Shown here piece by piece: positions 13,999-63,407 of a stretch of 64,000 nucleotides of DNA (position 1 is its first letter; every line of letters begins with the position of its first letter). This DNA is from an uncultured virus (IMG/VR IMGVR_UViG_3300020044_008989) (lineage: Duplodnaviria; Heunggongvirae; Uroviricota; Caudoviricetes), in the IMG/VR virus record IMGVR_UViG_3300020044_008989, positions 32,001 through 96,000 of that record, one strand, 5' to 3'. The notes under the pieces are model-generated. The model was not told the DNA's origin. It was given only the letters and a program-made list of their open reading frames with translations, and did not search any database. A program made the translations under genes and the position numbers.

Positions 13999-14681
13999 TC
14001 CATTGGTTGATTTGTTTGAATAATTTGTTCTCGGTCAATCATTGAGAATTGAGATAATCCGCGTTTTGTTGCGAGTTCAGTAAATTCAGAATAGATCGGG
14101 GTAGAATTTTCTTCGTCGAACTTCGCTGGGAAACTCTTCACTGTTGACTGGATAACCGCCGAACCAATTCTTAGCCTTCCGAAACCTATGGGCATAGGAA
14201 TACCCTGCTCAGTAACATTTTCGCCGTTGCTGAATAAAAATGACTTACTTAATGCAGTTGATGTCGCTGATGCGGAGCCAGCGTCAATTTTTTGGTCTTT
14301 CTGCATCAAATTAGAGATGCCGTAAGAGATAGCCGCTGACCCTAACGCCACAAGATACACAACAGCCCATTCTGGCGCGTATAAGGCCGCTGCGTAGAGG
14401 ACAACGCCAATAGCAGTGACAACACCCGCACTACCAGAGATGGCGGGCAGAATGTGGATTTCCTTGGCATTTGTTTTCTCAACACTAAATTTATTTGCCA
14501 AACTTCCATCCACAACAACAGAGTAATTCGCGCCGCCCTTACTCAATTCAAGGAGCCTGTTAACAAAGCCTTTTTTGTTGGCGTCAATAGCCCAAACAGC
14601 ATCTCTTGGGCGACTCAGAGAAAATCTGAATTTGCGCCCGAACTCTTTTGCAAGTAATCCATGTAAGTAAACCGTGGTCAT
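13995..14681 (-). CDS. Tail assembly protein (lambda gpI-like)
   Basis: MTTVYLHGLLAKEFG; IHILPAISGS; SFLFS...QGIPMPIGFGRLRIGS. Confidence 0.88.
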   Translation of the reverse strand: MTTVYLHGLLAKEFGRKFRFSLSRPRDAVWAIDANKKGFVNRLLELSKGGANYSVVVDGSLANKFSVEKTNAKEIHILPAISGSAGVVTAIGVVLYAAALYAPEWAVVYLVALGSAAISYGISNLMQKDQKIDAGSASATSTALSKSFLFSNGENVTEQGIPMPIGFGRLRIGSAVIQSTVKSFPAKFDEENSTPIYSEFTELATKRGLSQFSMIDREQIIQTNQPME

Positions 14682-15067: not shown

Positions 15068-16044
15068 TGTGTTCCTCGGCTGTATTTGTCGGTAGCTGGG
15101 AAACCTCCGAAAGGAAGGGATTTTTCGCTGTCTTGTAACCCGTAAGACAAAGGATTAGCGACTGTAACGCTTCCAGTATAAGAGATGCCCGTTTCTAAAA
15201 AATGTTTTCGACACGCACCAATGGTTTTCTGACATCCATCCTTACTCCAGACTAGGGCGTTAATCGCGGGCTGATTGATTTCGTTAGACAAGTGATCCAT
15301 ATTTGCCACAAAATAAGTTTTGTATGGGTCTTTTGCTGTTGGAAGGTAAGAAACTGCGCCAGATAAATAAGTCACTCCATAGCGCCACTCACTTTCGGTG
15401 CTCTGAAAATTAAATTGCCCTGTAGGAGCGATAGGGAATGGCGTCCCATCTTCTTTTTCTACGGGCGGACCCCAGTAATTACAACCGCAACCCCTGTATT
15501 GCCAGTGACAGTATCGAGGGGAAATTGCTCTTGCTGGCACGGTGAAATCAGAAATATCATATGGTGCCGTACATTCAAACTCAACGATTTGGCGGTTTTC
15601 CCCTAGTTTTTGAGAAACAATGAAAGTATCAACAATTTCTTGCGTCGAATCTGGTGCTCCAAAAGGATTTTCGCCGCCGTCAAAATTCGCATCGTCAATA
15701 AACCTCATTTGGGTTCTGACGCGGGCGATTTTGGCGTCCTTTAAGTCGTTCTTTTTGCGGAGAATCTGGGAAATTAACAATCCGTCGTTAGAAATTCTTA
15801 GTTTTGGGCGCTGAATTCTGTCTAATGTCGAGACTTCTAGGTTTTCGAATTCAATGGGTAACGGATTATATTGTGTCCCCTGCCAAAAGATTGCGCCGCC
15901 ATATCCATTGCTGGATGAGCACATAGGGTAATAACTACTAGGCTCGTTTACAGGGTCGTAGTAAAGACGGAACAATTCTACCTGCTGACTTGCTGGGTCG
16001 TTTAGGGAAAGTAGTCCTGCGATGAATTTTTCTGATAGAGCCAT
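15064..16044 (-). CDS. Minor tail protein (lambda gpL-like, Fe-S cysteines)
   Basis: RPKLRISN; FIDDANF; CHWQYRGCGCNY; DGCQKTIGACRKHF; LPFGGFP. Confidence 0.92.
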   Translation of the reverse strand: MALSEKFIAGLLSLNDPASQQVELFRLYYDPVNEPSSYYPMCSSSNGYGGAIFWQGTQYNPLPIEFENLEVSTLDRIQRPKLRISNDGLLISQILRKKNDLKDAKIARVRTQMRFIDDANFDGGENPFGAPDSTQEIVDTFIVSQKLGENRQIVEFECTAPYDISDFTVPARAISPRYCHWQYRGCGCNYWGPPVEKEDGTPFPIAPTGQFNFQSTESEWRYGVTYLSGAVSYLPTAKDPYKTYFVANMDHLSNEINQPAINALVWSKDGCQKTIGACRKHFLETGISYTGSVTVANPLSYGLQDSEKSLPFGGFPATDKYSRGTQ

Positions 16045-16046
16045 GA

Positions 16047-16571
16047 ATGCCTGTTAGTATATTAACCGATACCTTGACTACTTTACACCCCATAAACCCC
16101 GAGTGGATTCTGATCTCAGGTCAGGAGTTGATTAATACCCGCCAACAAGTTTGGCCGTTCTTTCTTGATTATTGCCTGAAGAGGAATCCGTTGCCAGAAT
16201 TTGAAGGATCATTTTCCGAGAAACAGAGAAAAATCGCCGACTATTTTCAATCCACCTTTACTAGAGAAAAGGATTTAGTTTTGCGGGCGGTAGGAAATTC
16301 CCTAACAGGATTTGTAGTATTCGATCCCCAGAACTGGAGTTTAGAGGGCGAATTCCCAGACAGAACCGTGGAGTTAGTAATCGCAGGATCAAATTCCAAA
16401 AACCCATGGCTGGATAAGAAAGACTTTGAAATTTTAGCCGCCGCTTATAAAAATCATAAGGGCTGTTCCTATATTGGTATGAATGTTCGCCGCGAATGGA
16501 AGGGTGACAAGTTTAAGAATTTCTGCCAGCGATTAGGATTCAAAGAGTCGGGCGAATTGTTTTTACTATGA
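16047..16571 (+). CDS. Hypothetical GNAT-like protein
   Basis: LTGFVVF...NFCQRLGFKE. Confidence 0.4.
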   Translation: MPVSILTDTLTTLHPINPEWILISGQELINTRQQVWPFFLDYCLKRNPLPEFEGSFSEKQRKIADYFQSTFTREKDLVLRAVGNSLTGFVVFDPQNWSLEGEFPDRTVELVIAGSNSKNPWLDKKDFEILAAAYKNHKGCSYIGMNVRREWKGDKFKNFCQRLGFKESGELFLL

Positions 16572-20817: not shown

Positions 20818-21018
20818 ATGAAAATCCTCCACCCACAAAACCTAATTTGGGCACTTCTCCTTTCTGGGGCGACAATTTTAGCTGCCGATTCGGTTAAAAC
20901 CCTGGCAACATACCAACAAATCTTCGCCGATAAAAAGATCACCTTGACAGAAAAAATGTCCTGGCTAGATTATTCGATGCTGAGAAACAAGAAAGGGTTT
21001 GTAAAATATGAAGATTGA
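20818..21018 (+). CDS. Small protein with hydrophobic N-terminus
   Basis: LIWALLLSGATILAA. Confidence 0.4.
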   Translation: MKILHPQNLIWALLLSGATILAADSVKTLATYQQIFADKKITLTEKMSWLDYSMLRNKKGFVKYED

Positions 21019-51801: not shown

Positions 51802-52059
51802 ATGAAATCACTCGGCACTATTTTACCAACGGCCAAAAGTTTAGCTATAAATGACGCTCATTTTGAAAAGGAGCAACGTCTGAATTTTACCTATGCCGAC
51901 AACCATCCACTACTAGGAATTTCACCTAGGGTTTGGGAAAAGGGCGAACATAGGTGGATTATTGCTCCTACTATTTATGCCGTAGTGGGAAATCAAACGG
52001 CAAAATTCTTTGAACGGCGGCATGATGGAGATTATGCAATCAAGTATTCCCCGAAATAA
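51802..52059 (+). CDS. Hypothetical protein
   Basis: Leaderless promoter. Confidence 0.55.
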   Translation: MKSLGTILPTAKSLAINDAHFEKEQRLNFTYADNHPLLGISPRVWEKGEHRWIIAPTIYAVVGNQTAKFFERRHDGDYAIKYSPK

Positions 52060-52107
52060 ATACAATTATTTACTTGCGCCGCTTCTAATCTCGGTTTATA
52101 TTCAGAC

Positions 52108-52371
52108 ATGAATCCATTCAGCCTTGCAGAAAAGAAACGCCACAATCTCAGTGATTTGACGAATGAAGAATTCGAGAAAATCGTATTCGCTGGCGCTACC
52201 ATGACAGAGCATCGCGGCCCAAGTGATGCTTTCACGGCTAAGGAAATGCAAACGATTATCAATAGCGACTCGTTTTATTATTTTCCTCAGTATTCTAAAG
52301 ATTTTCTTTGGGCTGCATACGCTAATGAAGCGGACAAAATTCTGGAAAAAGTGCGCGAAAATAACAATTAA
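52108..52371 (+). CDS. Hypothetical protein
   Basis: Promoter TTGCGC/TATATT. Confidence 0.55.
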   Translation: MNPFSLAEKKRHNLSDLTNEEFEKIVFAGATMTEHRGPSDAFTAKEMQTIINSDSFYYFPQYSKDFLWAAYANEADKILEKVRENNN

Positions 52372-52408
52372 TTCTTGACTGCTGGTTTAATCGTGATATT
52401 GTAACGGT

Positions 52409-52687
52409 ATGAATCAAATCACCCATAACAGAGTTTTCGATTTTGTTGCCAGTGTCGCGCCATATAGTACTATTGTCGGCACGATTTATGGACACGTCAT
52501 TCGCCTAGAGGAAAGAGTCGGCGGACACCTAGGGAAAACCCTTAACGTCCATCCTGGGAAAGATTCATTTCAAAACTGTATGCTTGATTGCAGGGCAATC
52601 GCTACGGATTACGGGCGGAAATTCTCTATTGAATCAGGCGGGAAGGCTATATTTTCCGTTGAAACGGTGGAAATTAAAAAGAAATAA
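52409..52687 (+). CDS. Hypothetical protein (paralog of 58080-58310)
   Basis: VIRLEER.GG.HLGKT.NVH shared. Confidence 0.65.
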   Translation: MNQITHNRVFDFVASVAPYSTIVGTIYGHVIRLEERVGGHLGKTLNVHPGKDSFQNCMLDCRAIATDYGRKFSIESGGKAIFSVETVEIKKK

Positions 52688-52724
52688 TTGTTGCGCCGCT
52701 TCTTAACTCGCTATATACTAAAGT

Positions 52725-52970
52725 ATGATTAACACAGAAGATGCCACCGCAATTAAAACCGCGCTCTCCCATCTTATCGCCTTAAAAGATGCTCCTGAAA
52801 ATGGGGAATACTTAAATGGCGCGATTAGCCTAGCAGAAAGCTTTCACGCTATGCTCTCTAACCGTGGAGACTCAAAAGCTTATGAGTCTGCATACAATAC
52901 TATAAAAAGCATGGGCAGAAACATGAAAAGTCTGAAAATAGACCGCGAAAATAATTCCAAAAATCATTAA
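52725..52970 (+). CDS. Hypothetical protein
   Basis: Leaderless promoter. Confidence 0.5.
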   Translation: MINTEDATAIKTALSHLIALKDAPENGEYLNGAISLAESFHAMLSNRGDSKAYESAYNTIKSMGRNMKSLKIDRENNSKNH

Positions 52971-53010
52971 TTAATTCTTGACGCGCTCTTATAACCCGCT
53001 ATATTAAACC

Positions 53011-53649
53011 ATGAAGAAAAACCCATCCCCTAAACTCGGCCTCCGCATCTCAAGTGAAACGTCAAACGGTTACAAGCATCTGTCTTTTCAGCTTTTGAAG
53101 CGCAAAGAGTATAGCGAGACTGACATGGAAGAAATGTTCGTTATTCGCTTTCAAAGCGATAGCGAGAATAAAGGATGGTACGCTATGCGGACTACCGTAG
53201 AAACGTCTGGAAACGCCGTTAATCACCTCTCTGAAGCTCTGAAGCTCATTAAAAAGCTCACGCCAGAAAATACGTACGACGAAACGCCAGACACGATTCT
53301 GGCGAAATGCGCTGAGTTGAAAATTGCACGGGTTGAATATGATTCGCGCTTGTCTCAATTCATTACAGAAAAGGACTGCCCTGATGTGTCTTTGACTAGG
53401 TGGATGGATGGGTACTTGCATTACAATCGTAGTTATGGATGTAGCGTTGCTACCCTTGCCCGTGATGAAATTGATGCGCGAAATAAAATCGCTAAGGAGT
53501 TTGCCGAGAATGTTGCCCAAGGATATTCCCTAGAGACTTTCGAGAAATGGATCGCGGCAGGGAAACCCGTAGAAGAAAACCGTGGTTCAATTTATGATGC
53601 TGCTCGTTTCGCTCCGATTGAATCAGTGATGGAGCCGCTAAATAAATGA
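53011..53649 (+). CDS. Hypothetical protein
   Basis: 212 aa; leaderless promoter. Confidence 0.65.
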   Translation: MKKNPSPKLGLRISSETSNGYKHLSFQLLKRKEYSETDMEEMFVIRFQSDSENKGWYAMRTTVETSGNAVNHLSEALKLIKKLTPENTYDETPDTILAKCAELKIARVEYDSRLSQFITEKDCPDVSLTRWMDGYLHYNRSYGCSVATLARDEIDARNKIAKEFAENVAQGYSLETFEKWIAAGKPVEENRGSIYDAARFAPIESVMEPLNK

Positions 53650-53691
53650 AAATAATTGTTGCGCCCCTTTGTTTCTGGCTTATAGTCTCTC

Positions 53692-54063
53692 ATGCAACTA
53701 AAGAATCAAACGACAAGGGGCGCAAAGATGCTTGAAATGAACGGCGATACTTACGCCCTTCGCAAGAATGTGATGGATGTGATCTATCGGGCAAAGAAAC
53801 TTGTTGACATTCCTCGCATCGAAGTGCGGATTGTCGAAACCCGTCCCTGCAATATGGGATACGCCTACTTAGGGAAAAACATTATCCACATAGGCGCAAA
53901 GTATGCCAGCAATCAGGGAAGTATGCTGGATTCCCTAGTCCTGCATGAAATTGTCCATGCCGTGAAATCGGCAAAGCATGATGAGAGTTGCCCACTGATG
54001 GGGACTTCCTATAAGGAATTTTCTGATGCGATTGTTTGGGACGCATTCAAGAAATATTTCTGA
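53692..54063 (+). CDS. HExxH metallopeptidase-like protein
   Basis: VLHEIVHAV...H...CPLM. Confidence 0.6.
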   Translation: MQLKNQTTRGAKMLEMNGDTYALRKNVMDVIYRAKKLVDIPRIEVRIVETRPCNMGYAYLGKNIIHIGAKYASNQGSMLDSLVLHEIVHAVKSAKHDESCPLMGTSYKEFSDAIVWDAFKKYF

Positions 54064-54104
54064 TTAATTACTTGCGCGGCAATTAATTTGTGTTATAGTG
54101 ATTT

Positions 54105-54419
54105 ATGAACAAACAAGACGCTCTCAACAAGTGGCAAAAAGCTGTCAAACTTCGCTTCCATGATTCGCTCGAAAAATGGAAAAACGCCTTTCCGACAACT
54201 GAAAGTTTCGCGCAGTTTTACGAGGATACAAAAAACCTTTCTTGGCCTGAAAACTATGGGCAGTCTCCTATGGATGACGCTTTTGACATTGCTTATTATC
54301 TTAGGAATGGAATCTCAGAAACGTCTAAGAAATTTTACGCCGAAAACTTAGATTCTTTCTGGATCAAACAGAAAGGCGAAAAAATGGATTACTACGGTAT
54401 AAAGTGGAGAATAATTTAA
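54105..54419 (+). CDS. Hypothetical protein
   Basis: Promoter TTGCGC/TATAGT. Confidence 0.55.
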   Translation: MNKQDALNKWQKAVKLRFHDSLEKWKNAFPTTESFAQFYEDTKNLSWPENYGQSPMDDAFDIAYYLRNGISETSKKFYAENLDSFWIKQKGEKMDYYGIKWRII

Positions 54420-54472
54420 ATTAATTTGATTCGCCGCTTGACTTGTCTCTTAATCTTTGGTATCGTAACAGT

Positions 54473-54670
54473 ATGAAAGAATCCTTCTCAACAATCAATG
54501 ATTGGAACTCATTTTATGATCGTCTCGCCCTTATGGGAAGTGCGGCAACAAATTGGAAAGTTGAGCTTGACAAAAGTTCTCGCTTGACAACCAAAAAGTT
54601 CCTTTATATAATAGCAAACGGTGAAAGCTGGAAGTTTGACCGAAAAAACAAATCCTTTTCTAGTAATTAA
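54473..54670 (+). CDS. Hypothetical protein
   Basis: Start set by promoter. Confidence 0.45.
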   Translation: MKESFSTINDWNSFYDRLALMGSAATNWKVELDKSSRLTTKKFLYIIANGESWKFDRKNKSFSSN

Positions 54671-54716
54671 TTTAAATTATTACTTGCGCCGTCTCTGAAA
54701 TCTGATATATTGAAAC

Positions 54717-54965
54717 ATGAAAGCAATCGCCCCCAGATCGTATGACTTTTTATTTTCCATTGAAACTGATTGCGATGGATGGTATGGGGAAATCTGCCGA
54801 AATAATCCAGTTGATTCTGATTGTTTTAGCGAGCTAGCAGAAATGAAAGGCTATCCTAGGAACAACGAGTGGAAACCTCTTGACATGAAAACTTTCTGGT
54901 TGTTTTGGGATGGCAAAATAACGCCAACGCACGAAAGAATTAAAAACAAATACTTGCGGCGCTAA
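54717..54965 (+). CDS. Hypothetical protein
   Basis: Promoter TTGCGC/TATATT. Confidence 0.5.
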   Translation: MKAIAPRSYDFLFSIETDCDGWYGEICRNNPVDSDCFSELAEMKGYPRNNEWKPLDMKTFWLFWDGKITPTHERIKNKYLRR

Positions 54966-55863
54966 TGAATGGTAATTCAGGAATAGAAAAGCTTTCGCCG
55001 CTCTTTCTGTAATTAAATAATCACATTCATCCTTGACAAGTTGACAGAAAACCATTAGATTAATCCCATGAACAAACAAGATTACGCTGATAAATGGTCA
55101 TCGAATGAGTGGCAAAAACTTTGCAAGAGTGACGATTTCGTGTCAGCATTTTGGTGGAATGATTTTGAACATGCGGATAAAATTGCCAACGAACTTTTGA
55201 GGATGTAATACCTTGACGATCAACGCATTAGAGCGGCAGCTGATGGGCGTTGTTTTTGTCTTTTTCTGCAAATAAGCAGGGAGAGATATAGGAATAGACT
55301 ATAGGAGTAATAGAGAGAATAAACAAAGCAAACTTGCCTAGTCGATTCACTTACGCCTAAACGTTATAACATCCTTGTCTTTTATCTCTGATTAATAATC
55401 ACTTGCAAAATGCAACTAACTTTTTTAATCGCGCCTAAGAATGTTAGTCCAGCCTAAGTTTGTGCGAAAAACAATCAAACAAATCTTGACGGCTCGAAAT
55501 AACCTGATATAGTATCAATCACAAACCGTTAATAACCAACAAACTACAATGATTACCCTCGAAGCAATGCACCACGGCAAAAAAGTCGATTCCATGTCCT
55601 TTACCGAAAGAAGCTCGAAAGAGGGGCGTGATTTAACTGGTAAAGAAATGACCGAATGGAAAGAAAAAATCAAAAACCAGTTTGACAATGTGGAGTTTGA
55701 CCTATACTTTGACTAATCACAAAAGTATCACGTTCCACAAAAAAGTGTTATTTTTACTAGGGTTTTATAAAGGTTTTTAGGCATTTTCCCGTGGAACAAA
55801 TGTTATTGTGATAAATAAGCAAGTTTTAGTTGACGGCGTGAAATAATCTGATATATTCCCTAT

Positions 55864-56064
55864 ATGAAAATAATCATGACAGTCCACCACGGCGAAACAA
55901 ATCACGAAATTGTTCGCGGCGAAACTTTTGAAGAATGCCTCTCGTATCTTTCTCACACTAATCTCTATAAAGGATACGGCCCCTCCCTAGAAGCAATGAA
56001 AGAATTAAAGGAGCATAAACAATTTTCCTACGGATGGGCGGACTATTCCATCATTGAAGAATAA
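55864..56064 (+). CDS. Hypothetical protein
   Basis: Leaderless promoter. Confidence 0.5.
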   Translation: MKIIMTVHHGETNHEIVRGETFEECLSYLSHTNLYKGYGPSLEAMKELKEHKQFSYGWADYSIIEE

Positions 56065-56111
56065 TTTCAGAAAATACTTGCGCCGCTCAAATAATTAGCT
56101 TATATTCTCCC

Positions 56112-56306
56112 ATGAACGCACAAGCTCACCTCTCTAATCTTGAAACTCAGCTAAATTTTATCCTTGAACATATCAGGGATTCAAAATGCCCTTTTTCGGG
56201 AAATTTTGTAGAACGCCGCGAAGAAATTGAAAAACACGCACGCGCCGCGAAAAAATCGTTTGACTGGTTAGACAATTGTGCCGTCATAAAAGATGCGCAA
56301 AATTAA
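56112..56306 (+). CDS. Hypothetical protein
   Basis: Leaderless promoter. Confidence 0.5.
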   Translation: MNAQAHLSNLETQLNFILEHIRDSKCPFSGNFVERREEIEKHARAAKKSFDWLDNCAVIKDAQN

Positions 56307-56349
56307 AAAACAACTTGCGCCCCACAAAATAACCTGCTATATTAAAAAC

Positions 56350-56622
56350 ATGAACAAAGAACCATCCTCCCCTAAGTCCATGACCTGCAAAATTTGGTCC
56401 TGCGACAATACCAAAGCTAAGAAAAACAACTGGCATTTCGCGCCGAAAAAACTGCGCGGGCAAGTGTCGGAAATCGCCCCTAAGATCAAATCCCTAGGCG
56501 TGGGAAGTAAGACCTATAAGCTCGGTCCTTACGAGGGAAGTCTGGAAGAACTTAAGGAATTCGCCCGTATGAAGGGCATGTCTTCCCTAAGTCTCGGATG
56601 CGTAAAGATTAAGGTGGCATAG
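56350..56622 (+). CDS. Basic hypothetical protein
   Basis: Start set by promoter TTGCGC/TATATT. Confidence 0.5.
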   Translation: MNKEPSSPKSMTCKIWSCDNTKAKKNNWHFAPKKLRGQVSEIAPKIKSLGVGSKTYKLGPYEGSLEELKEFARMKGMSSLSLGCVKIKVA

Positions 56623-56636
56623 GAAAAACCCCTAAG

Positions 56637-56733
56637 AGAGCACCTAGGTTAGCAACCTAGGTGTTCTTTGCACTCCGCAAACTTTTAAACGAGGGGTCCA
56701 TGTACACTATAGAGATAAAATCACTGAACGCAA
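56637..56733 (-). ncRNA. GGACCC-family short transcript unit 1 (promoter, short RNA, hairpin)
   Basis: TTGCGT-16-TATAGT-GTAC-ATGGACCCCTCGTTTAAAA...CACCTAGGTT/AACCTAGGTG hairpin. Confidence 0.55.
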
Positions 56734-56813
56734 GTAAAAAATAAAAATAAATTCGCGGCGAGAAAAGAGTAATTATTGCTTGATTAGTGTCTGGGCTCTG
56801 GTATATTAAACCT

Positions 56814-56993
56814 ATGAATCCCCCATCACATCCCGTCTCTGATTTGATCATCAAAATTTTGAGCACCAATAACGGCTATTTGTTCGCGCCCTCAGAAAAA
56901 GAAATTGACATCGCCAAATCCCACCCGACAGTGTTTCTTCACGTTTACAACCAGAATCAGGAATTTTTCCCGCATAAAATTTCTCTAAAATAA
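56814..56993 (+). CDS. Hypothetical protein
   Basis: Start set by promoter. Confidence 0.45.
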   Translation: MNPPSHPVSDLIIKILSTNNGYLFAPSEKEIDIAKSHPTVFLHVYNQNQEFFPHKISLK

Positions 56994-57029
56994 ACTTGCG
57001 CGGCAAATAAATCTGTGGTATAGTATCTT

Positions 57030-57239
57030 ATGAAACAACTAATCGCCCTCGCTAACGACAACCTTGTAATGGAACCCTTGGATGCACTCGCTACAGCTTG
57101 CGCCATCCTAGGCGGGAACATTGAAGCTCCTAGTATTTATCAGGATGACAGCGATGAACTCTATAGGGAAGTCTCCTATGATGGTAAGAAATTTCCCGTG
57201 TCCTATAGCGGCGAGCAGTGGGAAAGCGGCTGGATTTAA
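57030..57239 (+). CDS. Hypothetical protein
   Basis: Promoter TTGCGC/TATAGT. Confidence 0.5.
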   Translation: MKQLIALANDNLVMEPLDALATACAILGGNIEAPSIYQDDSDELYREVSYDGKKFPVSYSGEQWESGWI

Positions 57240-57548
57240 AATAAAACCACTTGACAGCGCGGAAGTCCCGCGCTATATTGTCCCAGCGAACAACTTCAGC
57301 TAGGGCGGCAAAAAAGGCCCGCGAATACCCTAGGTAGAATTTGCAGACGCTTAATTTTAAGGGATGGCAACTTGACGTTTAGACTAGTACGTGTTCCCTT
57401 AGACTTATCTGTCTAGGACTCTCGCCCCTCAGTACATACAAGATAGAGAGAAAATGAGGCCGCGCAACTATTAATTGATATTATTTTTACGCGGCGAAAA
57501 AAAGAGATTGGCCGTTGACAGAGAGATTATTCTGTGATATTGTAAACC

Positions 57549-57782
57549 ATGAAACGCTACACACACAAAGCACTCGAATCAGACGTTGAAGCTCTTAACG
57601 CTAAGCTGGCGGAGAAAGGCCATTCTATGCGCTTCATGGTGGGCGCTCGTTATGGGTACTCGGCTATTGACCTCGCTACGGTTGAACAATTGGCGCGGCA
57701 TTGCTGCCAGCGTAATCTTGACAGCGGTACGCCTCGTGAATGTCTCGCCGCTTGCCATTCTTACATGGCCAATAATTTGTGA
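57549..57782 (+). CDS. Hypothetical protein
   Basis: Leaderless promoter. Confidence 0.55.
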   Translation: MKRYTHKALESDVEALNAKLAEKGHSMRFMVGARYGYSAIDLATVEQLARHCCQRNLDSGTPRECLAACHSYMANNL

Positions 57783-57823
57783 AAACAGCTTGCGCATCTC
57801 TTAACCCTCGCCTATATTATTCC

Positions 57824-57982
57824 ATGCTTACAAGAAAAACATTCATCGCCGTCGCCGCCACCGTTTTAGCCATCGCCGATAAAAACGAGCGCGAAAAACA
57901 GGCAAATTTCCAAGCTCAAATTTTCGCCGCCAGCAATCCCCGATTTGACAAGGCTCGTTTCCTTTCCGCTTGTGGACTCTAA
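57824..57982 (+). CDS. Small hypothetical phage protein
   Basis: MLTRKTFIAVA...NPRFDKARFLSACG. Confidence 0.6.
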   Translation: MLTRKTFIAVAATVLAIADKNEREKQANFQAQIFAASNPRFDKARFLSACGL

Positions 57983-58079
57983 GAAAAACCCATGATTATT
58001 CTACTGATTATAATCGGCGCTCTCGTTTTAAAGTGAAGAAAAAACTTGCGGGCGAAAATATTCTGTGATATAATAAGCC

Positions 58080-58310
58080 ATGACACAAATCGCTTACAAT
58101 CAAGTCACCGACTTTCTTCAATCTCTGCGAGAAAATAGCTCAGTTTGCATTGAAAAATACGGTTACGTCATTCGCCTAGAAGAGCGGCTCGACGGAGGCT
58201 CTCACCTAGGGAAAACTATTAACGTACATCTTGGCAATGATTCGTTGAACAATTGTCTTTTGGATTGCGAGGCTATCGCGAAAGATAGTGGAAGAAAATT
58301 GACAAAATAA
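58080..58310 (+). CDS. Hypothetical protein (paralog of 52409-52687)
   Basis: Shared motifs; leaderless promoter. Confidence 0.65.
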   Translation: MTQIAYNQVTDFLQSLRENSSVCIEKYGYVIRLEERLDGGSHLGKTINVHLGNDSLNNCLLDCEAIAKDSGRKLTK

Positions 58311-58345
58311 CTTGCGGCCCATTAATTTCTCTGCTACATTCTCCC

Positions 58346-58534
58346 ATGACAACTCAAAAACAAATCCGAGATTCTTTCTGGGAAATCAATGAACAATGGG
58401 CCGACGCCAGACGTTCGCGTAAAACCCATAATGACTACAATTCAACAATCCGATGCGCGTTTGTCGATTATGTGGATTCCCTAGCCAAAAGCGGGAAAAT
58501 CTCTGAAAAGCTTGCAGATAGAGTGACGCTTTAA
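58346..58534 (+). CDS. Small hypothetical phage protein
   Basis: TTQKQIRDSFW...RCAFVDYVDSL...LADRVTL. Confidence 0.6.
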   Translation: MTTQKQIRDSFWEINEQWADARRSRKTHNDYNSTIRCAFVDYVDSLAKSGKISEKLADRVTL

Positions 58535-58542
58535 TAACTTTC

Positions 58543-58624
58543 CCTAGTATGGCGTAATTGGTAGCCGCCACCCGCTTAAGACGGGTGATCGAAAGGTGTC
58601 TCGGTTCGAGTCCGAGTACTAGGA
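58543..58624 (+). tRNA. tRNA-Leu (anticodon TAA)
   Basis: Acceptor CCTAGTA/TACTAGG; anticodon arm ACCCG-CTTAAGA-CGGGT; long variable arm; T-arm CTCGG-TTCGAGT-CCGAG; CCA not encoded. Confidence 0.92.
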
Positions 58625-58635
58625 CTTTCCCTTAT

Positions 58636-58712
58636 GTTCCTGTAGCTCAATTGTATAGAGCGCCGTCCTTCTAAGACGGGGGTTATAGGTTAGAATCCTA
58701 TCAGGAACGCCA
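58636..58712 (+). tRNA. tRNA-Arg (anticodon TCT)
   Basis: Acceptor GTTCCTG/CAGGAAC; CCGTC-CTTCTAA-GACGG; encoded CCA; atypical T-loop TTAGAAT. Confidence 0.9.
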
Positions 58713-58768
58713 GTTTAAAAACTGAAAAAATCAGTTGCGCCCCATAATTTTCTGGTTTATTGTTCCCC

Positions 58769-59014
58769 ATGAAAATTCCCCACTACGACAAGCGAGACGG
58801 CCAAAAAGATTCGGCCCTTGGATTTAAAACGATTCGTGAAATCATGGGCTTGCCATGGAATCGCGGCCTTTCGCGCTGCATTGAAGGATGTTCGCTGGAT
58901 CACAAAAAAGAACTCTCCCGCCTAAAAAGAGAAGCAAAAAAGAACGGCGAAACAATTCTCGCAACTATTTTTCACAACTACGCGGCGGAAATTTTGGTGG
59001 AAAATACAAATTGA
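58769..59014 (+). CDS. Hypothetical protein
   Basis: Start set by promoter. Confidence 0.5.
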   Translation: MKIPHYDKRDGQKDSALGFKTIREIMGLPWNRGLSRCIEGCSLDHKKELSRLKREAKKNGETILATIFHNYAAEILVENTN

Positions 59015-59051
59015 TACTTGCGTGGCGAAAAATAATCCGCTATATTGTTAC

Positions 59052-59237
59052 ATGAAAAAACAATACGGGACATTTACAAAAGAGGCCGATGGGCGCTTGT
59101 CTGGTCATGTCATTATTATTAATTCAGTGAGGAAAGATGGAAAGTACGCAGTAACGCACGCTTTCGCTACTAGCGGGAAAAGAATCAACAAAGTGTACAC
59201 AAAAGAGCAACTAGAGGAACAAATCAGCAAAATCTAG
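59052..59237 (+). CDS. Hypothetical protein
   Basis: Start set by promoter. Confidence 0.5.
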   Translation: MKKQYGTFTKEADGRLSGHVIIINSVRKDGKYAVTHAFATSGKRINKVYTKEQLEEQISKI

Positions 59238-59442
59238 TTGCGCGCCCTTCTAATCTCTGCTATATTTTCCCATGCAAACAACTCCCCTCTTCAAAGTCGT
59301 TAAAGTCATGCGAGTCTCAGGCCGCCGTCAAATCTTAGAGAAAAATCTCACTGAGTCGGAAGCCCAAAGGTGCGTGGGGAGATTCCCTAATTCGTCGCGG
59401 TCAATGGTCGTGTATTTCCGACAGTAATACCTAGTCCAACCA

Positions 59443-59543
59443 CCTAGTCAGAGCCTAAGAACTTTGACTAGGAAATTTTGCGCCCGAATATTTTTTAAAC
59501 GAAGGGTCCATGCTAACATATCACAGAATAATTCCAGAATCAA
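59443..59543 (-). ncRNA. GGACCC-family short transcript unit 2
   Basis: TTGATT-17-TATGTT-AGC-ATGGACCCTTCGTTTAAAA...CCTAGTCA/TGACTAGG hairpin. Confidence 0.5.
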
Positions 59544-59622
59544 GAAAAAAGAAAATTAATTTTTCGGTGCGAAAAATAGATTCGCCGCTTGACAGTCTAA
59601 ACTTTATCTTGTATATTCTCCC

Positions 59623-59856
59623 ATGAACATTCCAGAAACGTTTGCTAACAAAGGATGTATTTTAAATCCAGAAAACATTGCATCATGGGTTAAAGAGGAA
59701 ATTGACGCTTTCGGCATTAAAAAAGCAAAACAAATTTTCTCTGAAAGGGCTGACAGGGTTAAAGCCTTGATTCCTGATTGGGTTAAATACGTTTCGGCTA
59801 GTTTTGAGCCTTTCTATTGGCAAGCTGAAAAAATGTGGAGAGACGCAGCAAAATAA
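59623..59856 (+). CDS. Hypothetical protein
   Basis: Promoter TTGACA/TATATT. Confidence 0.55.
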   Translation: MNIPETFANKGCILNPENIASWVKEEIDAFGIKKAKQIFSERADRVKALIPDWVKYVSASFEPFYWQAEKMWRDAAK

Positions 59857-59892
59857 TTTGCATTCATTTAATCCCTCGCCTATAGTACCAGC

Positions 59893-60102
59893 ATGAACAA
59901 AATCATCACCTCTTATTTTCGCCCGAATAATCTTGTTGCTACTGAAATTGAAAATATTTCTCCGCGTGTTTTTGCTCTTATGAAAAACATTTCAGAAAAT
60001 TTCTATGATTTTAATAACGGCGAAAGGCGGAGATTCGAACATCGTGACCTAGGCACTAAGGAAAATATGGAAAAATTGTTTTCTGACCTAGAAGCGGCCT
60101 AA
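59893..60102 (+). CDS. Hypothetical protein
   Basis: Leaderless promoter. Confidence 0.5.
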   Translation: MNKIITSYFRPNNLVATEIENISPRVFALMKNISENFYDFNNGERRRFEHRDLGTKENMEKLFSDLEAA

Positions 60103-60252
60103 ATAACTTTCTTATGAGTGACTTCGACAAATATATGATTTCCCTAGGTTATCGCCTACATGAAAATGGGCAAACTTGGATTTCATGGTAAACTTTCTTA
60201 AACACCAAATACTATAGCGTCCTAAGAACCAATGGCGCGTGAATAGGTTATT

Positions 60253-60380
60253 CTCCTAGGGTCAAAAGCTCTAGGGGATTTTTGCTCGCCGCAGGGCATC
60301 CCTACGGGATAATCTTAGGGGTGTTTCTTAACACAATGAAGCGTCCATGTACAATATACAGAATAATTTGCCGCTGTCAA
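60253..60380 (-). ncRNA. GGACCC-family short transcript unit 3 (divergent)
   Basis: TTGACA-16-TATATT-GTAC-ATGGACGCTTCATT...CCTAG hairpin. Confidence 0.45.
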
Positions 60381-60458
60381 ATTAAAAACAAAAAAATATT
60401 TCGGAGCAAAAAACCAACAATTAACTTGTTTATATTCTGGGATATGGTAGATTGATTC

Positions 60459-60713
60459 ATGCAAACAAAACAAATCTTCCCGTGGAATGTCAAAATCGGT
60501 GACGTACTTGTGATGGGCGGGCCTTATGGCGGCGAGTCAAATTCTGAGATTATTGCGATCCAGAAAGGGCGCGCTCATTTTTTCCGCGCCACTAAATGGA
60601 CGTTTTTTGTAAAGGAGCCGCTTTACATGACCAAGCAATTTTCCTACTATGGCAAATTCATGGCGCAAGGTTTACAGCATGAAGCTGAAAAAGTTAAAAT
60701 TTTGAAGAAATAA
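60459..60713 (+). CDS. Hypothetical protein
   Basis: ORF in the early-type array. Confidence 0.5.
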   Translation: MQTKQIFPWNVKIGDVLVMGGPYGGESNSEIIAIQKGRAHFFRATKWTFFVKEPLYMTKQFSYYGKFMAQGLQHEAEKVKILKK

Positions 60714-60748
60714 TTTGCGCGCCCCTCTTTTCTCGCCATATTAACAAT

Positions 60749-60991
60749 ATGAATCACGACACACTCTGGCAAGCCATGAATCAAGTGGAGAAAGAACTCT
60801 CAGAATCCCGCGCCATCCCTGCGGAAGATTGGGCTGAGAAATTCTCCTACGGGGGAATTCCCTACGGCACTAGGAAAGAGGCGCATTTCCCCCTGCTCTC
60901 CTACAAGGGCAAGCCTACGAAAAAATACGGGCACGTCGTAATCGAAAGGCTTGATCGTGGCACCTATGAGGTGGTGGTGTATTGCCTGTAG
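60749..60991 (+). CDS. Hypothetical protein
   Basis: IERLDRGTYEVVVY; TTGCGC promoter. Confidence 0.55.
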   Translation: MNHDTLWQAMNQVEKELSESRAIPAEDWAEKFSYGGIPYGTRKEAHFPLLSYKGKPTKKYGHVVIERLDRGTYEVVVYCL

Positions 60992-61003
60992 TAGTAAGAT
61001 TAA

Positions 61004-61095
61004 TCCCTAGGGTAGTGCCTAGGGAATTTTTTCACGCAAAAAGCTTTTAAACTTGGGGTCCATGTACAATATACTGACAAAACATTCGGGCGCAA
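61004..61095 (-). ncRNA. GGACCC-family short transcript unit 4
   Basis: TTGCGC-16-TATATT-GTAC-ATGGACCCCAAGTTTAAAA...TCCCTAGG/CCTAGGGA hairpin. Confidence 0.55.
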
Positions 61096-61175
61096 GTATT
61101 AATTTCATATAATTTCCAGAATTAAACTTTGTAGAATAAGCTTGATTAATGTTTAGACCCTGATACTGTACCAGC

Positions 61176-61388
61176 ATGAACGAAATCATTGCAGACACAC
61201 CCGACAAAATCGCCTTTTTCAAGCTCTGCTCCCTGCGTGGGGCGCTCCGATTGGAAGCGGCAGGAATGAAATCACGCGGGAAATCCGCCACTAGCATAGC
61301 CAAATCCCTAGGCTACAAAGGAAAAACCGCTGCTGATTTGTATTATGCTGTCAACGCCAAAATCCGAGAGCTTAACCCTATCGACTAA
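61176..61388 (+). CDS. Small hypothetical phage protein
   Basis: ALRLEAAGMKSRGKSA. Confidence 0.6.
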   Translation: MNEIIADTPDKIAFFKLCSLRGALRLEAAGMKSRGKSATSIAKSLGYKGKTAADLYYAVNAKIRELNPID

Positions 61389-61673
61389 TCCATCGCCCTA
61401 GTGGGGAAAGTCTCCTCACTAGGGAATTTTCGGGCGATATTTTTGTTGACTTATTCTCTAGGACGTGGTAACTTGTTATGGTCCCCAAGTCTAAAAACCA
61501 TAAAAGTCCAGATTCCCTTAGAATTCTCGGTCTGGCGTCTCGTGCTTCCGTGCATATAACATAGAGAGGGCTGAACAATAGTCAAACTATTTCTATTATT
61601 AATTTTGAGAAAAAACTTTTGGCGCGGCAATAAATAATTGTTGATTATAGGGGCGCATGGGTTAGAGTGATAC

Positions 61674-61886
61674 ATGAAAGAAAAATTCACTTTTGAAGTC
61701 ACGGACACGTTCGGCGGTGATGCGAACTACCGCTGGGTACGCAGGCATGAGATTGAAGCTAAATCCCTGCATGGCGCGCTTTGCATTCTTTCGCGCATCG
61801 AAGGGCTGAATTTTCGCTCCGTTGGGTGTGATCGCTATGATGCGCGGGGCGCTTGCATTTGCGCTTTCTTGATAGAGGAATATTAA
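61674..61886 (+). CDS. Small hypothetical phage protein
   Basis: EVTDTFGGDANYRWVRR. Confidence 0.6.
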   Translation: MKEKFTFEVTDTFGGDANYRWVRRHEIEAKSLHGALCILSRIEGLNFRSVGCDRYDARGACICAFLIEEY

Positions 61887-61928
61887 AATAAAACTTGCGT
61901 GCCAATAAATTCTCTGGTATAGTCTCCT

Positions 61929-62285
61929 ATGAACAAAATCACCCTCGCCTATCTCGTTTGCGCTCTTTGGTCATCCACACAAGATGATGGTTCGCCTTTC
62001 GATGATGATTATGGAGTTGACGATTTTCACCCTGATTCTGTAGAAAAAGCAGCGGGCGAAATAAGTGATTTTCTTAGTCTGTTGGAGGCCGAAAATATCC
62101 TATGGGAGGAAGAAATGTCTGAGGAAAGTTTCGGTCATGATTTTTGGCTTACTAGGAATCGTCATGGCGCGGGATTCTGGGACAGAGGCTTGGGAGACCT
62201 AGGGAAAAAGCTTACCGATTGGGCACACTCCTATGGTTCGTCGGATGTTTACTTAGGCGATGATGGGAAAGTGCATTTGTCCTAG
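61929..62285 (+). CDS. Hypothetical phage early-type protein
   Basis: YLVCALWSS...GHDFWLTRNRHGAGFWDR. Confidence 0.7.
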   Translation: MNKITLAYLVCALWSSTQDDGSPFDDDYGVDDFHPDSVEKAAGEISDFLSLLEAENILWEEEMSEESFGHDFWLTRNRHGAGFWDRGLGDLGKKLTDWAHSYGSSDVYLGDDGKVHLS

Positions 62286-62349
62286 CGGAAAGTAAATAAT
62301 TGCAATTAAAAGTTGCGCGCCAGTTTTCTCTGTGCTATCTTGTCAGGCC

Positions 62350-62595
62350 ATGAACGAAAAAATCTTTTCCATCCTCTCCAATATGTTTCCAGGTTTGCCA
62401 GTCGAAAAAGCAATCGGAGAAAATGCCAAGCAAGTACGTTTTCTTACTGATACGCATGAATGCAGCATTACCGTTTTCGAGCCTAGGAATAATACTGAAG
62501 ACAAAGACTTAGCCACTCAGAAGAATTATTCTAGGAATGATAATGATATTGTCTGGCTTGGCAACGTAAGATTTTCCGCCACCAATCGCATTTAA
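62350..62595 (+). CDS. Hypothetical protein
   Basis: Start set by promoter. Confidence 0.5.
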   Translation: MNEKIFSILSNMFPGLPVEKAIGENAKQVRFLTDTHECSITVFEPRNNTEDKDLATQKNYSRNDNDIVWLGNVRFSATNRI

Positions 62596-62612
62596 CCCGT
62601 CAAATACCCTAT

Positions 62613-62879
62613 ATGAAATCCCTATCCCTCCGCTATCGTGTTTTCTCTGTCTCCTACGTCCCCGCGACAAATACTCGCCCATGTAGGGTAAAAATTAAAG
62701 ACTGCCGCCGAAATGTCTCTAGGATTATCAACTATGGCGCAAATAATAATCCAGGGGAGGATTTGGAAATAACAGCGCGCAAATACTTGCTTTCCCTAGG
62801 CATCGAGTGTCAGGCGCTAGGGATGTGTGAGAGGGATTTTTTCCTGCTGTCTGAGGATTTCATGACCCCCCTCTCCTAA
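62613..62879 (+). CDS. Small hypothetical phage protein
   Basis: SYVPATNTRPCRVKI. Confidence 0.55.
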   Translation: MKSLSLRYRVFSVSYVPATNTRPCRVKIKDCRRNVSRIINYGANNNPGEDLEITARKYLLSLGIECQALGMCERDFFLLSEDFMTPLS

Positions 62880-63200
62880 CGAGTGACTAGGTGGCTCCCC
62901 TATAGAGGTTCTTAGGGGCGGGCTCTCGTTTGTGAGAATAATTATTTTTTATTCTTCGCCAAAAGATGTTTTTTCGTTTGAAGGGTGAAAATTTATCTGG
63001 TATATTGAGAGCGGAAAGAGACGCGAGCGGGATAACAAGTACCCGCAAGATCGGCAAGCCTCTTGTCCCTGCCCACATATGGCCTTGATCTCGCGTAGCG
63101 AGTTAGCCAGACCGCTAGCAAGATCACGCCTTTTTAAAGGCGTTGCAATCCGCGCCCATCACTAACGAGGGGCGCGGATAAACAACGTAATTTTAAGATC

Positions 63201-63407
63201 ATGACAAAAAAAGAAATCAGACAAACGGTTCAAGATGAGATTGCACTCGAAAAAGCTGAATTCCAAGCAGCACGCGCAGAGTTCTATCATGAGTTTTCCA
63301 TGCATGGCGGGGATGGACCTTGGAACAACTATGGCGAAGATGAACCGCAAGAAAAGTACGTCCCCCGTCCCGCAGTTTACGCCAGCCCATCAAATTCGCC
63401 CTTTTAG
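63201..63407 (+). CDS. Hypothetical protein
   Basis: Follows a structured leader. Confidence 0.45.
   Translation: MTKKEIRQTVQDEIALEKAEFQAARAEFYHEFSMHGGDGPWNNYGEDEPQEKYVPRPAVYASPSNSPF

Follow-up and report, generated by a model that had tools for sequence, protein, structure and literature searches.

Repeated antisense promoters with a GGAC start box point into early-gene terminators of an uncultured lake phage

Introduction

Lambda oop and similar cis-antisense RNAs of phages are short, have a sigma-70 promoter of their own, and are complementary to the 3′ end of a convergent gene. Multicopy small RNAs (sRNAs) such as OmrA/OmrB and Qrr combine a conserved 5′ seed with their own U-tailed terminators and are encoded by free-standing genes. 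In coliphages 186 and P2, promoters face each other and transcriptional interference occurs; 186 has one such pair, which serves as a developmental switch between coding operons (PMC6593788, PMC5001618). The PeSL cassettes of T4-type phages join a stem-loop to an early promoter and mediate shuffling (PMC2839356, PMC4122927). Here we describe a family of promoter units in the early region of an uncultured lake phage (IMG/VR record IMGVR_UViG_3300020044_008989; 148,420 bp, 42% G+C). The window analyzed is the 64,000-nt stretch formed by bases 32001–96000 of that record, and coordinates refer to it unless stated otherwise. We report the motif, promoters, positions, spacing, and conservation of the units together with their loss of coding signal, and from these we infer their transcription, start site, RNA ends, and a mechanism acting in cis.

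The units resemble oop in having their own sigma-70 promoter, in converging with a gene, and in their predicted complementarity to its 3′ end, but they form a repeated family of 4 to ~17 copies per genome with a common start box, lie at a fixed distance from the terminator of the target, and have no terminator of their own. With OmrA/OmrB and Qrr they share the occurrence in several copies with a constant 5′ end and a variable body, whereas they lack a U-tail and are tied to the terminator of a neighboring gene. The likeness to 186 and P2 lies in convergent promoters a few tens of base pairs apart (57–62 nt between the starts in the related contig L204), at which polymerase collision or occlusion would be expected; in contrast to the single pair of 186, the phage described here has many pairs, or promoter–terminator pairs, between cassettes and requires no coding partner. 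As in PeSL, a stem-loop and an early promoter recur between small variable early genes whose order is mosaic among relatives, and the terminator, the promoter of the next gene, and the mosaic borders are all present at the units. The stem-loop and promoter of PeSL, however, both run in the gene direction, and the 2014 paper mentions no antisense promoter (PMC2839356, PMC4122927); the antisense promoter is not part of PeSL, and the units add precisely this, a backward-pointing promoter with a conserved start box.

In the literature searched, we found no leaderless array with antisense promoters that recur at a constant distance behind terminators and have a start box in common, and the design, with its putative function, appears not to have been described before. 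The early regions of phages tend to be seen as simple co-directional arrays; here, ~60 single-gene leaderless cassettes are combined with a repeated antisense module, in a phage group that is uncultured and widespread in lakes.

Results

Five Promoter Units in a Leaderless Early Array

The window contains an array of small plus-strand genes at ~20.9–62.3 kb, whose promoters consist of TTG..., a spacer of 16–18 nt, and TAnnnT (n = 65). In 37 of these promoters the ATG lies exactly 5 nt past the −10 element and in 28 exactly 6 nt, and the array genes are therefore leaderless, each with a promoter of its own. A scan with a degenerate start motif returned exactly five sites, in comparison with a mean of 0.52 in dinucleotide shuffles, and none of the 100 shuffles reached five. 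The sites have their ATG at 56701, 59511, 60348, and 61063 on the minus strand and at 61478 on the plus strand, and are the same five that a first-pass annotation, made by a model from the letters alone, had listed as a dispersed family of short transcripts. That annotation had also credited each unit with a full promoter. Scored with a weight matrix trained on 63 of the phage's own leaderless gene promoters (training 10th percentile 10.8, median 16.3), units 1–5 reach 14.9, 12.2, 16.0, 17.5, and 11.5, all above the 10th percentile. The distal early array has five strong minus-strand promoters; four of them belong to the box-carrying units and the fifth (57467) to another noncoding locus. The features of the units are as follows.

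Unit 1 (type A), 56637..56733, minus strand: −35 element at 56733–56728, −10 element TATAGT at 56711–56706, predicted start G at 56699; a 36-nt linker, then a hairpin at 56663–56641 that is the reverse complement of the terminator of gene 56350–56622, with a terminator-like U-tract on the plus strand.
Unit 2 (type A), 59443..59543, minus strand: −35 element at 59543–59538, −10 element TATGTT at 59520–59515 with TG upstream, predicted start G at 59509; a 37-nt linker, then a hairpin at 59472–59443, behind gene 59272–59427.
Unit 3 (GGACGCTT subfamily, long variant), 60225..60380, minus strand: −35 element at 60380–60375, −10 element at 60358–60353, predicted start G at 60346; two additional hairpins, then the reverse complement of the plus-strand terminator at 60252–60278.
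Unit 4 (type A), 61004..61095, minus strand: −35 element at 61095–61090, −10 element at 61073–61068, predicted start G at 61061; a 36-nt linker, then a hairpin at 61025–61004 that is the terminator of gene 60749–60991.
Unit 5, 61446..61585, plus strand: −35 element at 61446–61451, −10 element at 61469–61474, predicted start G at 61480.
Promoter opposing unit 5, minus strand: −35 element at 61585–61580, −10 element at 61563–61558; predicted transcript overlap ~72 nt.

Two further features were seen around unit 3. The 244-nt spacer upstream of it contains a possible 25-codon open reading frame (ORF) at 60116–60193, and a second GGACGCT is present at ~60235–60229 on the minus strand, without a promoter.

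Coupling to Terminators

Units 1, 2, and 4 each lie past a plus-strand gene and past the hairpin and T-run that follow it. Read on the unit strand, these hairpins come after an A-run and have no U-tract behind them; the U-tract is found on the gene strand only. The terminal hairpin that had been assigned to the units in the first-pass annotation is thus present, and it contains CCTAG in all four minus-strand units as claimed, but in units 1, 2, and 4 it is the intrinsic terminator of the upstream gene in reverse, without a U-tract of its own. A loose terminator scan was too permissive to give reliable terminator counts.

The coupling extends to related phages, which are introduced in the next section. 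Of the 16 terminator-facing units of four phages, 15 have their hairpin 33–41 nt from the predicted start (median 36–37), and several of the linkers that keep this length cannot be aligned with one another. Units 1–4, and 15/16 of the terminator-facing units in the four phages, have the anatomy of a cis-antisense gene, with a promoter convergent with a gene and a predicted overlap with its 3′ end. Folding of the hairpins is equally favorable on the two strands (summed energy −219.8 versus −215.7 kcal/mol), with 13 G–U pairs on the unit strand and 6 on the gene strand; the hairpins are not adapted to the gene strand only. Their stems share the pattern CCTAG...CTAGG in 13 of 14 units.

The limits of the module are sharp. 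Unit 2 and its ortholog in contig L185 share homology that begins at the −35 element and ends with the final base of the hairpin, past which they are unrelated; the neighboring genes differ, and the transcribed part is more conserved than the promoter spacer. The module therefore consists of promoter, box, linker, and hairpin.

Conservation in Related Phages

Two relatives, L185 and L190, came out of a motif scan of metagenome contigs, and both have the full promoter, the box, and the CCTAG hairpin. L185 is part of a 19-kb contig that bears 28 leaderless promoters on the opposite strand, and L190 has two units in 1.4 kb. Independently of the motif, the early protein encoded at 57549–57782 has 67 homologs that lead to contigs of several lineages; through it we reached L204, from lake metagenomes, which is 78% identical in this marker. 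The samples behind L204 and L185 are recorded as ENA ERZ27313463 and ERZ18650074 and JGI 3300025896. L204 has ~17 units in 11 kb, nearly all of them antisense to genes, and the core GGAC(C/G)C(C/T) stands directly behind a promoter in 15 of its 16 occurrences. The GGACGCTT start of unit 3 is that of a frequent subfamily in L204 (5 units), in line with the earlier inclusion of unit 3 in the family.

The first-pass annotation had named a lack of conservation in related phages as grounds for giving up the family, and had suggested a search for more copies. The units are conserved in L185, L190, and L204; no promoter-linked copy was found elsewhere in the 148-kb genome, and the further copies are all in relatives, with up to ~17 in L204. 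Four phages with the same leaderless arrays, L208, L211, L214, and L215, have no units in the 11–20 kb sampled. Judged from these contigs, the family is conserved, expandable, and dispensable.

Other routes to relatives were set aside. Exact-motif scans of IMG/VR with two patterns gave 19 and 7 loci, all of them matches by chance or within coding sequence, with neither promoters nor leaderless arrays, and three contigs matching 23 nt of unit 4 do so within the 3′ coding end of a 443-aa gene. A 118-aa acidic protein and an 80-aa protein led to unrelated phages, and the fragments G001–G003, related through the portal-like protein, do not contain the early region. Alignment of the early protein against a genome collection returned one small contig of a metagenome-assembled genome and no clue to the host.

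Start Site and Coding Potential

The first G of GGAC lies 5 nt (13 cases) or 6 nt (11 cases) past the −10 element in all 24 units of the four phages. This is the position at which the leaderless genes start, and therefore the RNA should begin with GGAC. By the phage's own spacing rule, transcription of the units should thus start at GG, as proposed in the first-pass annotation. That annotation had placed the ATG of the units 3–4 nt from the −10 element and that of the coding genes at 5–6 nt, a spacing seen in the 65 gene promoters; the A of the unit ATG is accordingly two bases nearer to the −10 element than the start A of the leaderless genes. The case illustrates how a phage's own promoter-to-start spacing can separate noncoding starts from leaderless genes.

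The ATG itself is kept in 20 of the 24 units, and the remaining 4 have CTG, ACG, or TTG. In the window, we read the same codon counts as before, 14, 18, 6, 14, and 28 aa for units 1–5; across the phages, the ATG frames are 3–74 codons long, and 9 of the 20 have a stop at codon 4. The block of gene, terminator, unit, and gene around unit 4 is syntenic in L204 with 84% identity, and in this ortholog CTG replaces the ATG and the GGAC box and the bases next to it are retained. L185 and L190 have a stop codon after Met-Asp-Pro, and the downstream stretch GTTTAAAA is nonetheless conserved; therefore, the conservation is at the nucleotide level. The units are very probably noncoding, and on the spacing of the start, the loss of the ATG, and the stops at codon 4 we reject the micropeptides that had been offered earlier as an alternative. 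A plus-strand ORF or Shine–Dalgarno reading of GGGGTCCATG was rejected, as the apparent peptide is the reverse complement of the antisense promoter.

The Conserved Box and Sequence Subfamilies

The conserved box is CATGGAC(C/G)C(C/T)T, with C-A-T before the predicted start and G-G-A-C-(C/G)-C-(C/T)-T after it, and it spans positions −3 to +8. The constant 5′ handle noted earlier is thus real as a short box, ~8–9 nt predicted to be transcribed plus 3 untranscribed bases upstream, and does not include GTTTAAAA, which is specific to a subfamily and complements the distal U-rich sequence past the gene-strand terminator. The stretches GTTTAAAA and TTGCG(T/C)GA(A/G)AAA of units 1, 2, and 4 reappear in some L204 units, and read on the gene strand both are the U-rich sequence after the terminator. 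In the consensus fold of 14 units, the box is unpaired.

That the box spans the predicted start and includes untranscribed bases argues for a role at the level of the DNA or of initiation. It might serve as an operator common to the units or provide a dedicated GTP start; a 5′ seed left unpaired in the RNA is a possible reading too. Three other candidates were rejected: The likeness of GTTTAAAA to a boxA/nut site or to a −10-like pause element, judged by eye, is too weak; pairing of the box with a site past the hairpin is seen in ~9 of 24 units, with a weak control, and is not general; and the restriction site GGWCC, considered as an explanation of the motif, is mildly depleted (75 sites versus ~100 expected).

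Unit 5 and Face-to-Face Promoter Loci

Unit 5 had been counted as a member of the same family. It belongs to a separate type of locus, a conserved face-to-face promoter pair. The unit 5 body has orthologs in L204 (two copies) and in L211 that differ in their 5′ ends, and the unit 4-like start is found in the window phage only.

L204 has at least four face-to-face modules (five by eye) with the close spacing of starts given above. We located them at 14340–14430, 15880–15960, 16360–16445, and 16840–16925 of L204, each past a gene-strand terminator. Their antisense start is the GGAC box, and the gene-strand partner starts with (A/T)TGGA(C/T), similar to the unit box; internally, they have a conserved hairpin GTCTCAA...TTGAGAC. 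No large palindromes or long inverted repeats were found around the face-to-face pairs.

The noncoding locus with the fifth strong minus-strand promoter is likewise convergent, with a plus-strand promoter at 57251, a minus-strand promoter at 57467, and starts ~150 nt apart. It has no GGAC box. Both promoters and starts are conserved in L185 (3199/2976) and L211 (13684/13907); in L208 (11084/11312), the plus-strand promoter is conserved and the minus-strand partner is divergent.

Discussion

The explanation that we favor, tentatively and with slightly less than even confidence, is that the units are cis-acting antisense promoters coupled to terminators. As noncoding elements, they would be read by the sigma-70-type RNA polymerase of the host concurrently with the early genes. 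Units 1, 2, and 4 make up the main type, of which unit 3 is a longer variant; here, the promoter lies just past the terminator of a leaderless gene and faces back toward it, and the predicted RNA would comprise the handle, an A-rich linker, and the terminator in reverse, probably running onward into the 3′ end of the upstream gene. A polymerase at or leaving the antisense promoter would meet polymerases that reach or pass the terminator, and the antisense RNA could pair with read-through or full-length transcripts of the upstream gene. The net effect would be to seal the 3′ boundary of the cassette and to insulate the next leaderless promoter. The start box would then be a shared element of identity or control, giving a GTP start in place of the ATP forced on leaderless genes and possibly a binding site for a factor.

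Open complexes cover the DNA to about +20, and an elongating polymerase extends ~15 bp ahead of its active site. By this estimate, a polymerase that has reached the gene-strand U-tract would be in contact with one bound at the antisense promoter, which fits a steric coupling by roadblock or collision only roughly. The estimated contact falls slightly before the normal release point, so that the geometry of a roadblock is only roughly right, and this is one of several points that weigh against the explanation. Transcription, start site, and RNA ends rest on sequence prediction, and the tight spacing could partly reflect the common descent of paralogous copies. A role in cis alone leaves unexplained why 8–9 transcribed bases and the upstream CAT should be conserved across unrelated bodies. 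The four related phages without units in the sampled 11–20 kb are a further point, as the units are therefore dispensable for the leaderless design.

An extended version of the cis-acting explanation would see in the units a new device of leaderless-gene phages, in which a polymerase held 36–37 nt behind the terminator, with a GTP start at the GGAC box, enforces termination and insulates cassettes, and a dedicated phage or host factor reading the RNA or the box switches the whole set together; we consider this speculative and rather unlikely. If the units do form a termination or insulation device or a co-regulated RNA family, they would represent a new way to organize dense transcription and offer a compact, portable part for synthetic biology.

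A family of trans-acting sRNAs is a possibility to which we give a low probability. The 5′ GGACCCC... would in that case be a seed for host or phage RNA or for a protein, the number of copies would set the dose, and the hairpin would stabilize the 3′ end. Such RNAs would make sense of a box that is the only part common to otherwise unrelated bodies and is left unpaired in the 14-unit consensus, of homology between orthologs that stops precisely where the hairpin does, as a discrete RNA of ~65 nt would lead one to expect, and of the gain by unit 5 of the window phage of a unit 4-like 5′ end where its orthologs start differently; the unit strand, moreover, has no fewer G–U pairs than the gene strand. 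Yet the units have neither a U-tail nor a terminator of their own, the usual mark of Hfq-type sRNAs, and the conservation of three bases upstream of the predicted start would be needless for an RNA seed, as would the fixed distance to the terminator of the neighboring gene. Complementarity of the units to other sites in the phage genome does not exceed the chance level, and of the Rfam covariance models only those of the two tRNAs match, at the gathering threshold and at E up to 1. The earlier suggestions of sponges, guides, or primers thus find no significant complementary partner elsewhere in the phage and no Rfam family.

The same degree of doubt applies to elements that act as DNA. The box would here be an operator or protein-binding site marking mobile promoter–terminator cassettes for the shuffling of early genes, with any RNA incidental. 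Its conserved core is far too short for homologous recombination, every copy retains a full promoter of the quality of the gene promoters, and between orthologs the transcribed part is more conserved than the promoter spacer. On the other hand, conservation that crosses the start site, from −3 to +8 with the untranscribed bases included, is what a DNA element would show, and the cassette has other neighboring genes from one phage to the next, sharply bounded homology, and copy numbers from 0 to ~17 among relatives. The clustering of CCTAGG in the same 11 kb (18 of 23 genomic sites) would also fit.

CRISPR RNA (crRNA)-like guides, or RNA decoys against host defense, are very improbable: An 8–9-nt handle, a ~28-nt variable part, and a hairpin behind a promoter of each unit's own, 36–37 nt followed by ~22–30 nt of hairpin with CCTAG...CTAGG stems in 13/14 units, do resemble the layout and lengths of mature type I crRNA, but the variable parts hold the complement of the gene-strand U-tract and subfamily motifs and so are not unique spacers, the hairpins are not alike in sequence and are clearly upstream-gene terminators, and no match in the phage exceeds chance. 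Equally remote are leaderless micropeptide genes or translated three-codon minigenes (Met-Asp-Pro or Met-Asp-Ala, stop) that perhaps sequester a tRNA in the manner of the lambda bar minigenes, for which one can cite the ATG retained in 20/24 units, the codon-4 stop in nine of these with all three stop codons used, and a host that plainly translates leaderless mRNA, but in which the A of the ATG, 3–4 nt past the −10 element, would be two bases too near in comparison with the 65 leaderless genes, four units, one of them the unit 4 ortholog in L204, lack the ATG, the frames scatter over 3–74 codons with indels between units shifting them, and GTTTAAAA would be conserved beyond the stop codon in L185 and L190.

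Other Features of the Genome

Among the genes of the phage are those for a ribonucleotide reductase, a DnaB-like helicase, and a large terminase. Metagenomes contain more than 300 relatives of its portal-like protein, for which cultured phages gave no match. Pfam searches with ten proteins neighboring the units gave no match, and an exact look-up of the window proteins matched no record. The large terminase ORF (L029 13407–16556; genome 109407–112556) is 1,049 aa long, and its terminase matches fall in separate stretches; it may contain an insertion such as an intein.

The early array at 20944–62350 comprises ~63 single-gene cassettes, each with its own sigma-70-type promoter, and the second codon nearly always starts with A. 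Genes for tRNA-Leu(TAA) and tRNA-Arg(TCT) lie within it at 58543–58712, amid leaderless cassettes. At 62978, a promoter is followed by ~190 nt without a start codon and then by a gene at 63201, and the stretch 62978–63200 could be a structured leader or an RNA that ends the early array.

The genome shows strong avoidance of restriction sites. CCGG has 0 sites in the whole genome, in comparison with 284 expected; ATCGAT, CCGCGG, CGGCCG, CGCGCG, AGATCT, AGGCCT, CTGCAG, CTCGAG, GGATCC, and CACGTG are missing genome-wide, and GATC and GTAC are depleted to about half. The CCTAGG cluster covers 51925–62800, the region of the units, and its sites lie in terminator hairpins and in coding sequence, there often as Leu-Gly encoded by CTA-GGN. 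The density of CTAG in the same region is two to three times that in the rest of the genome.

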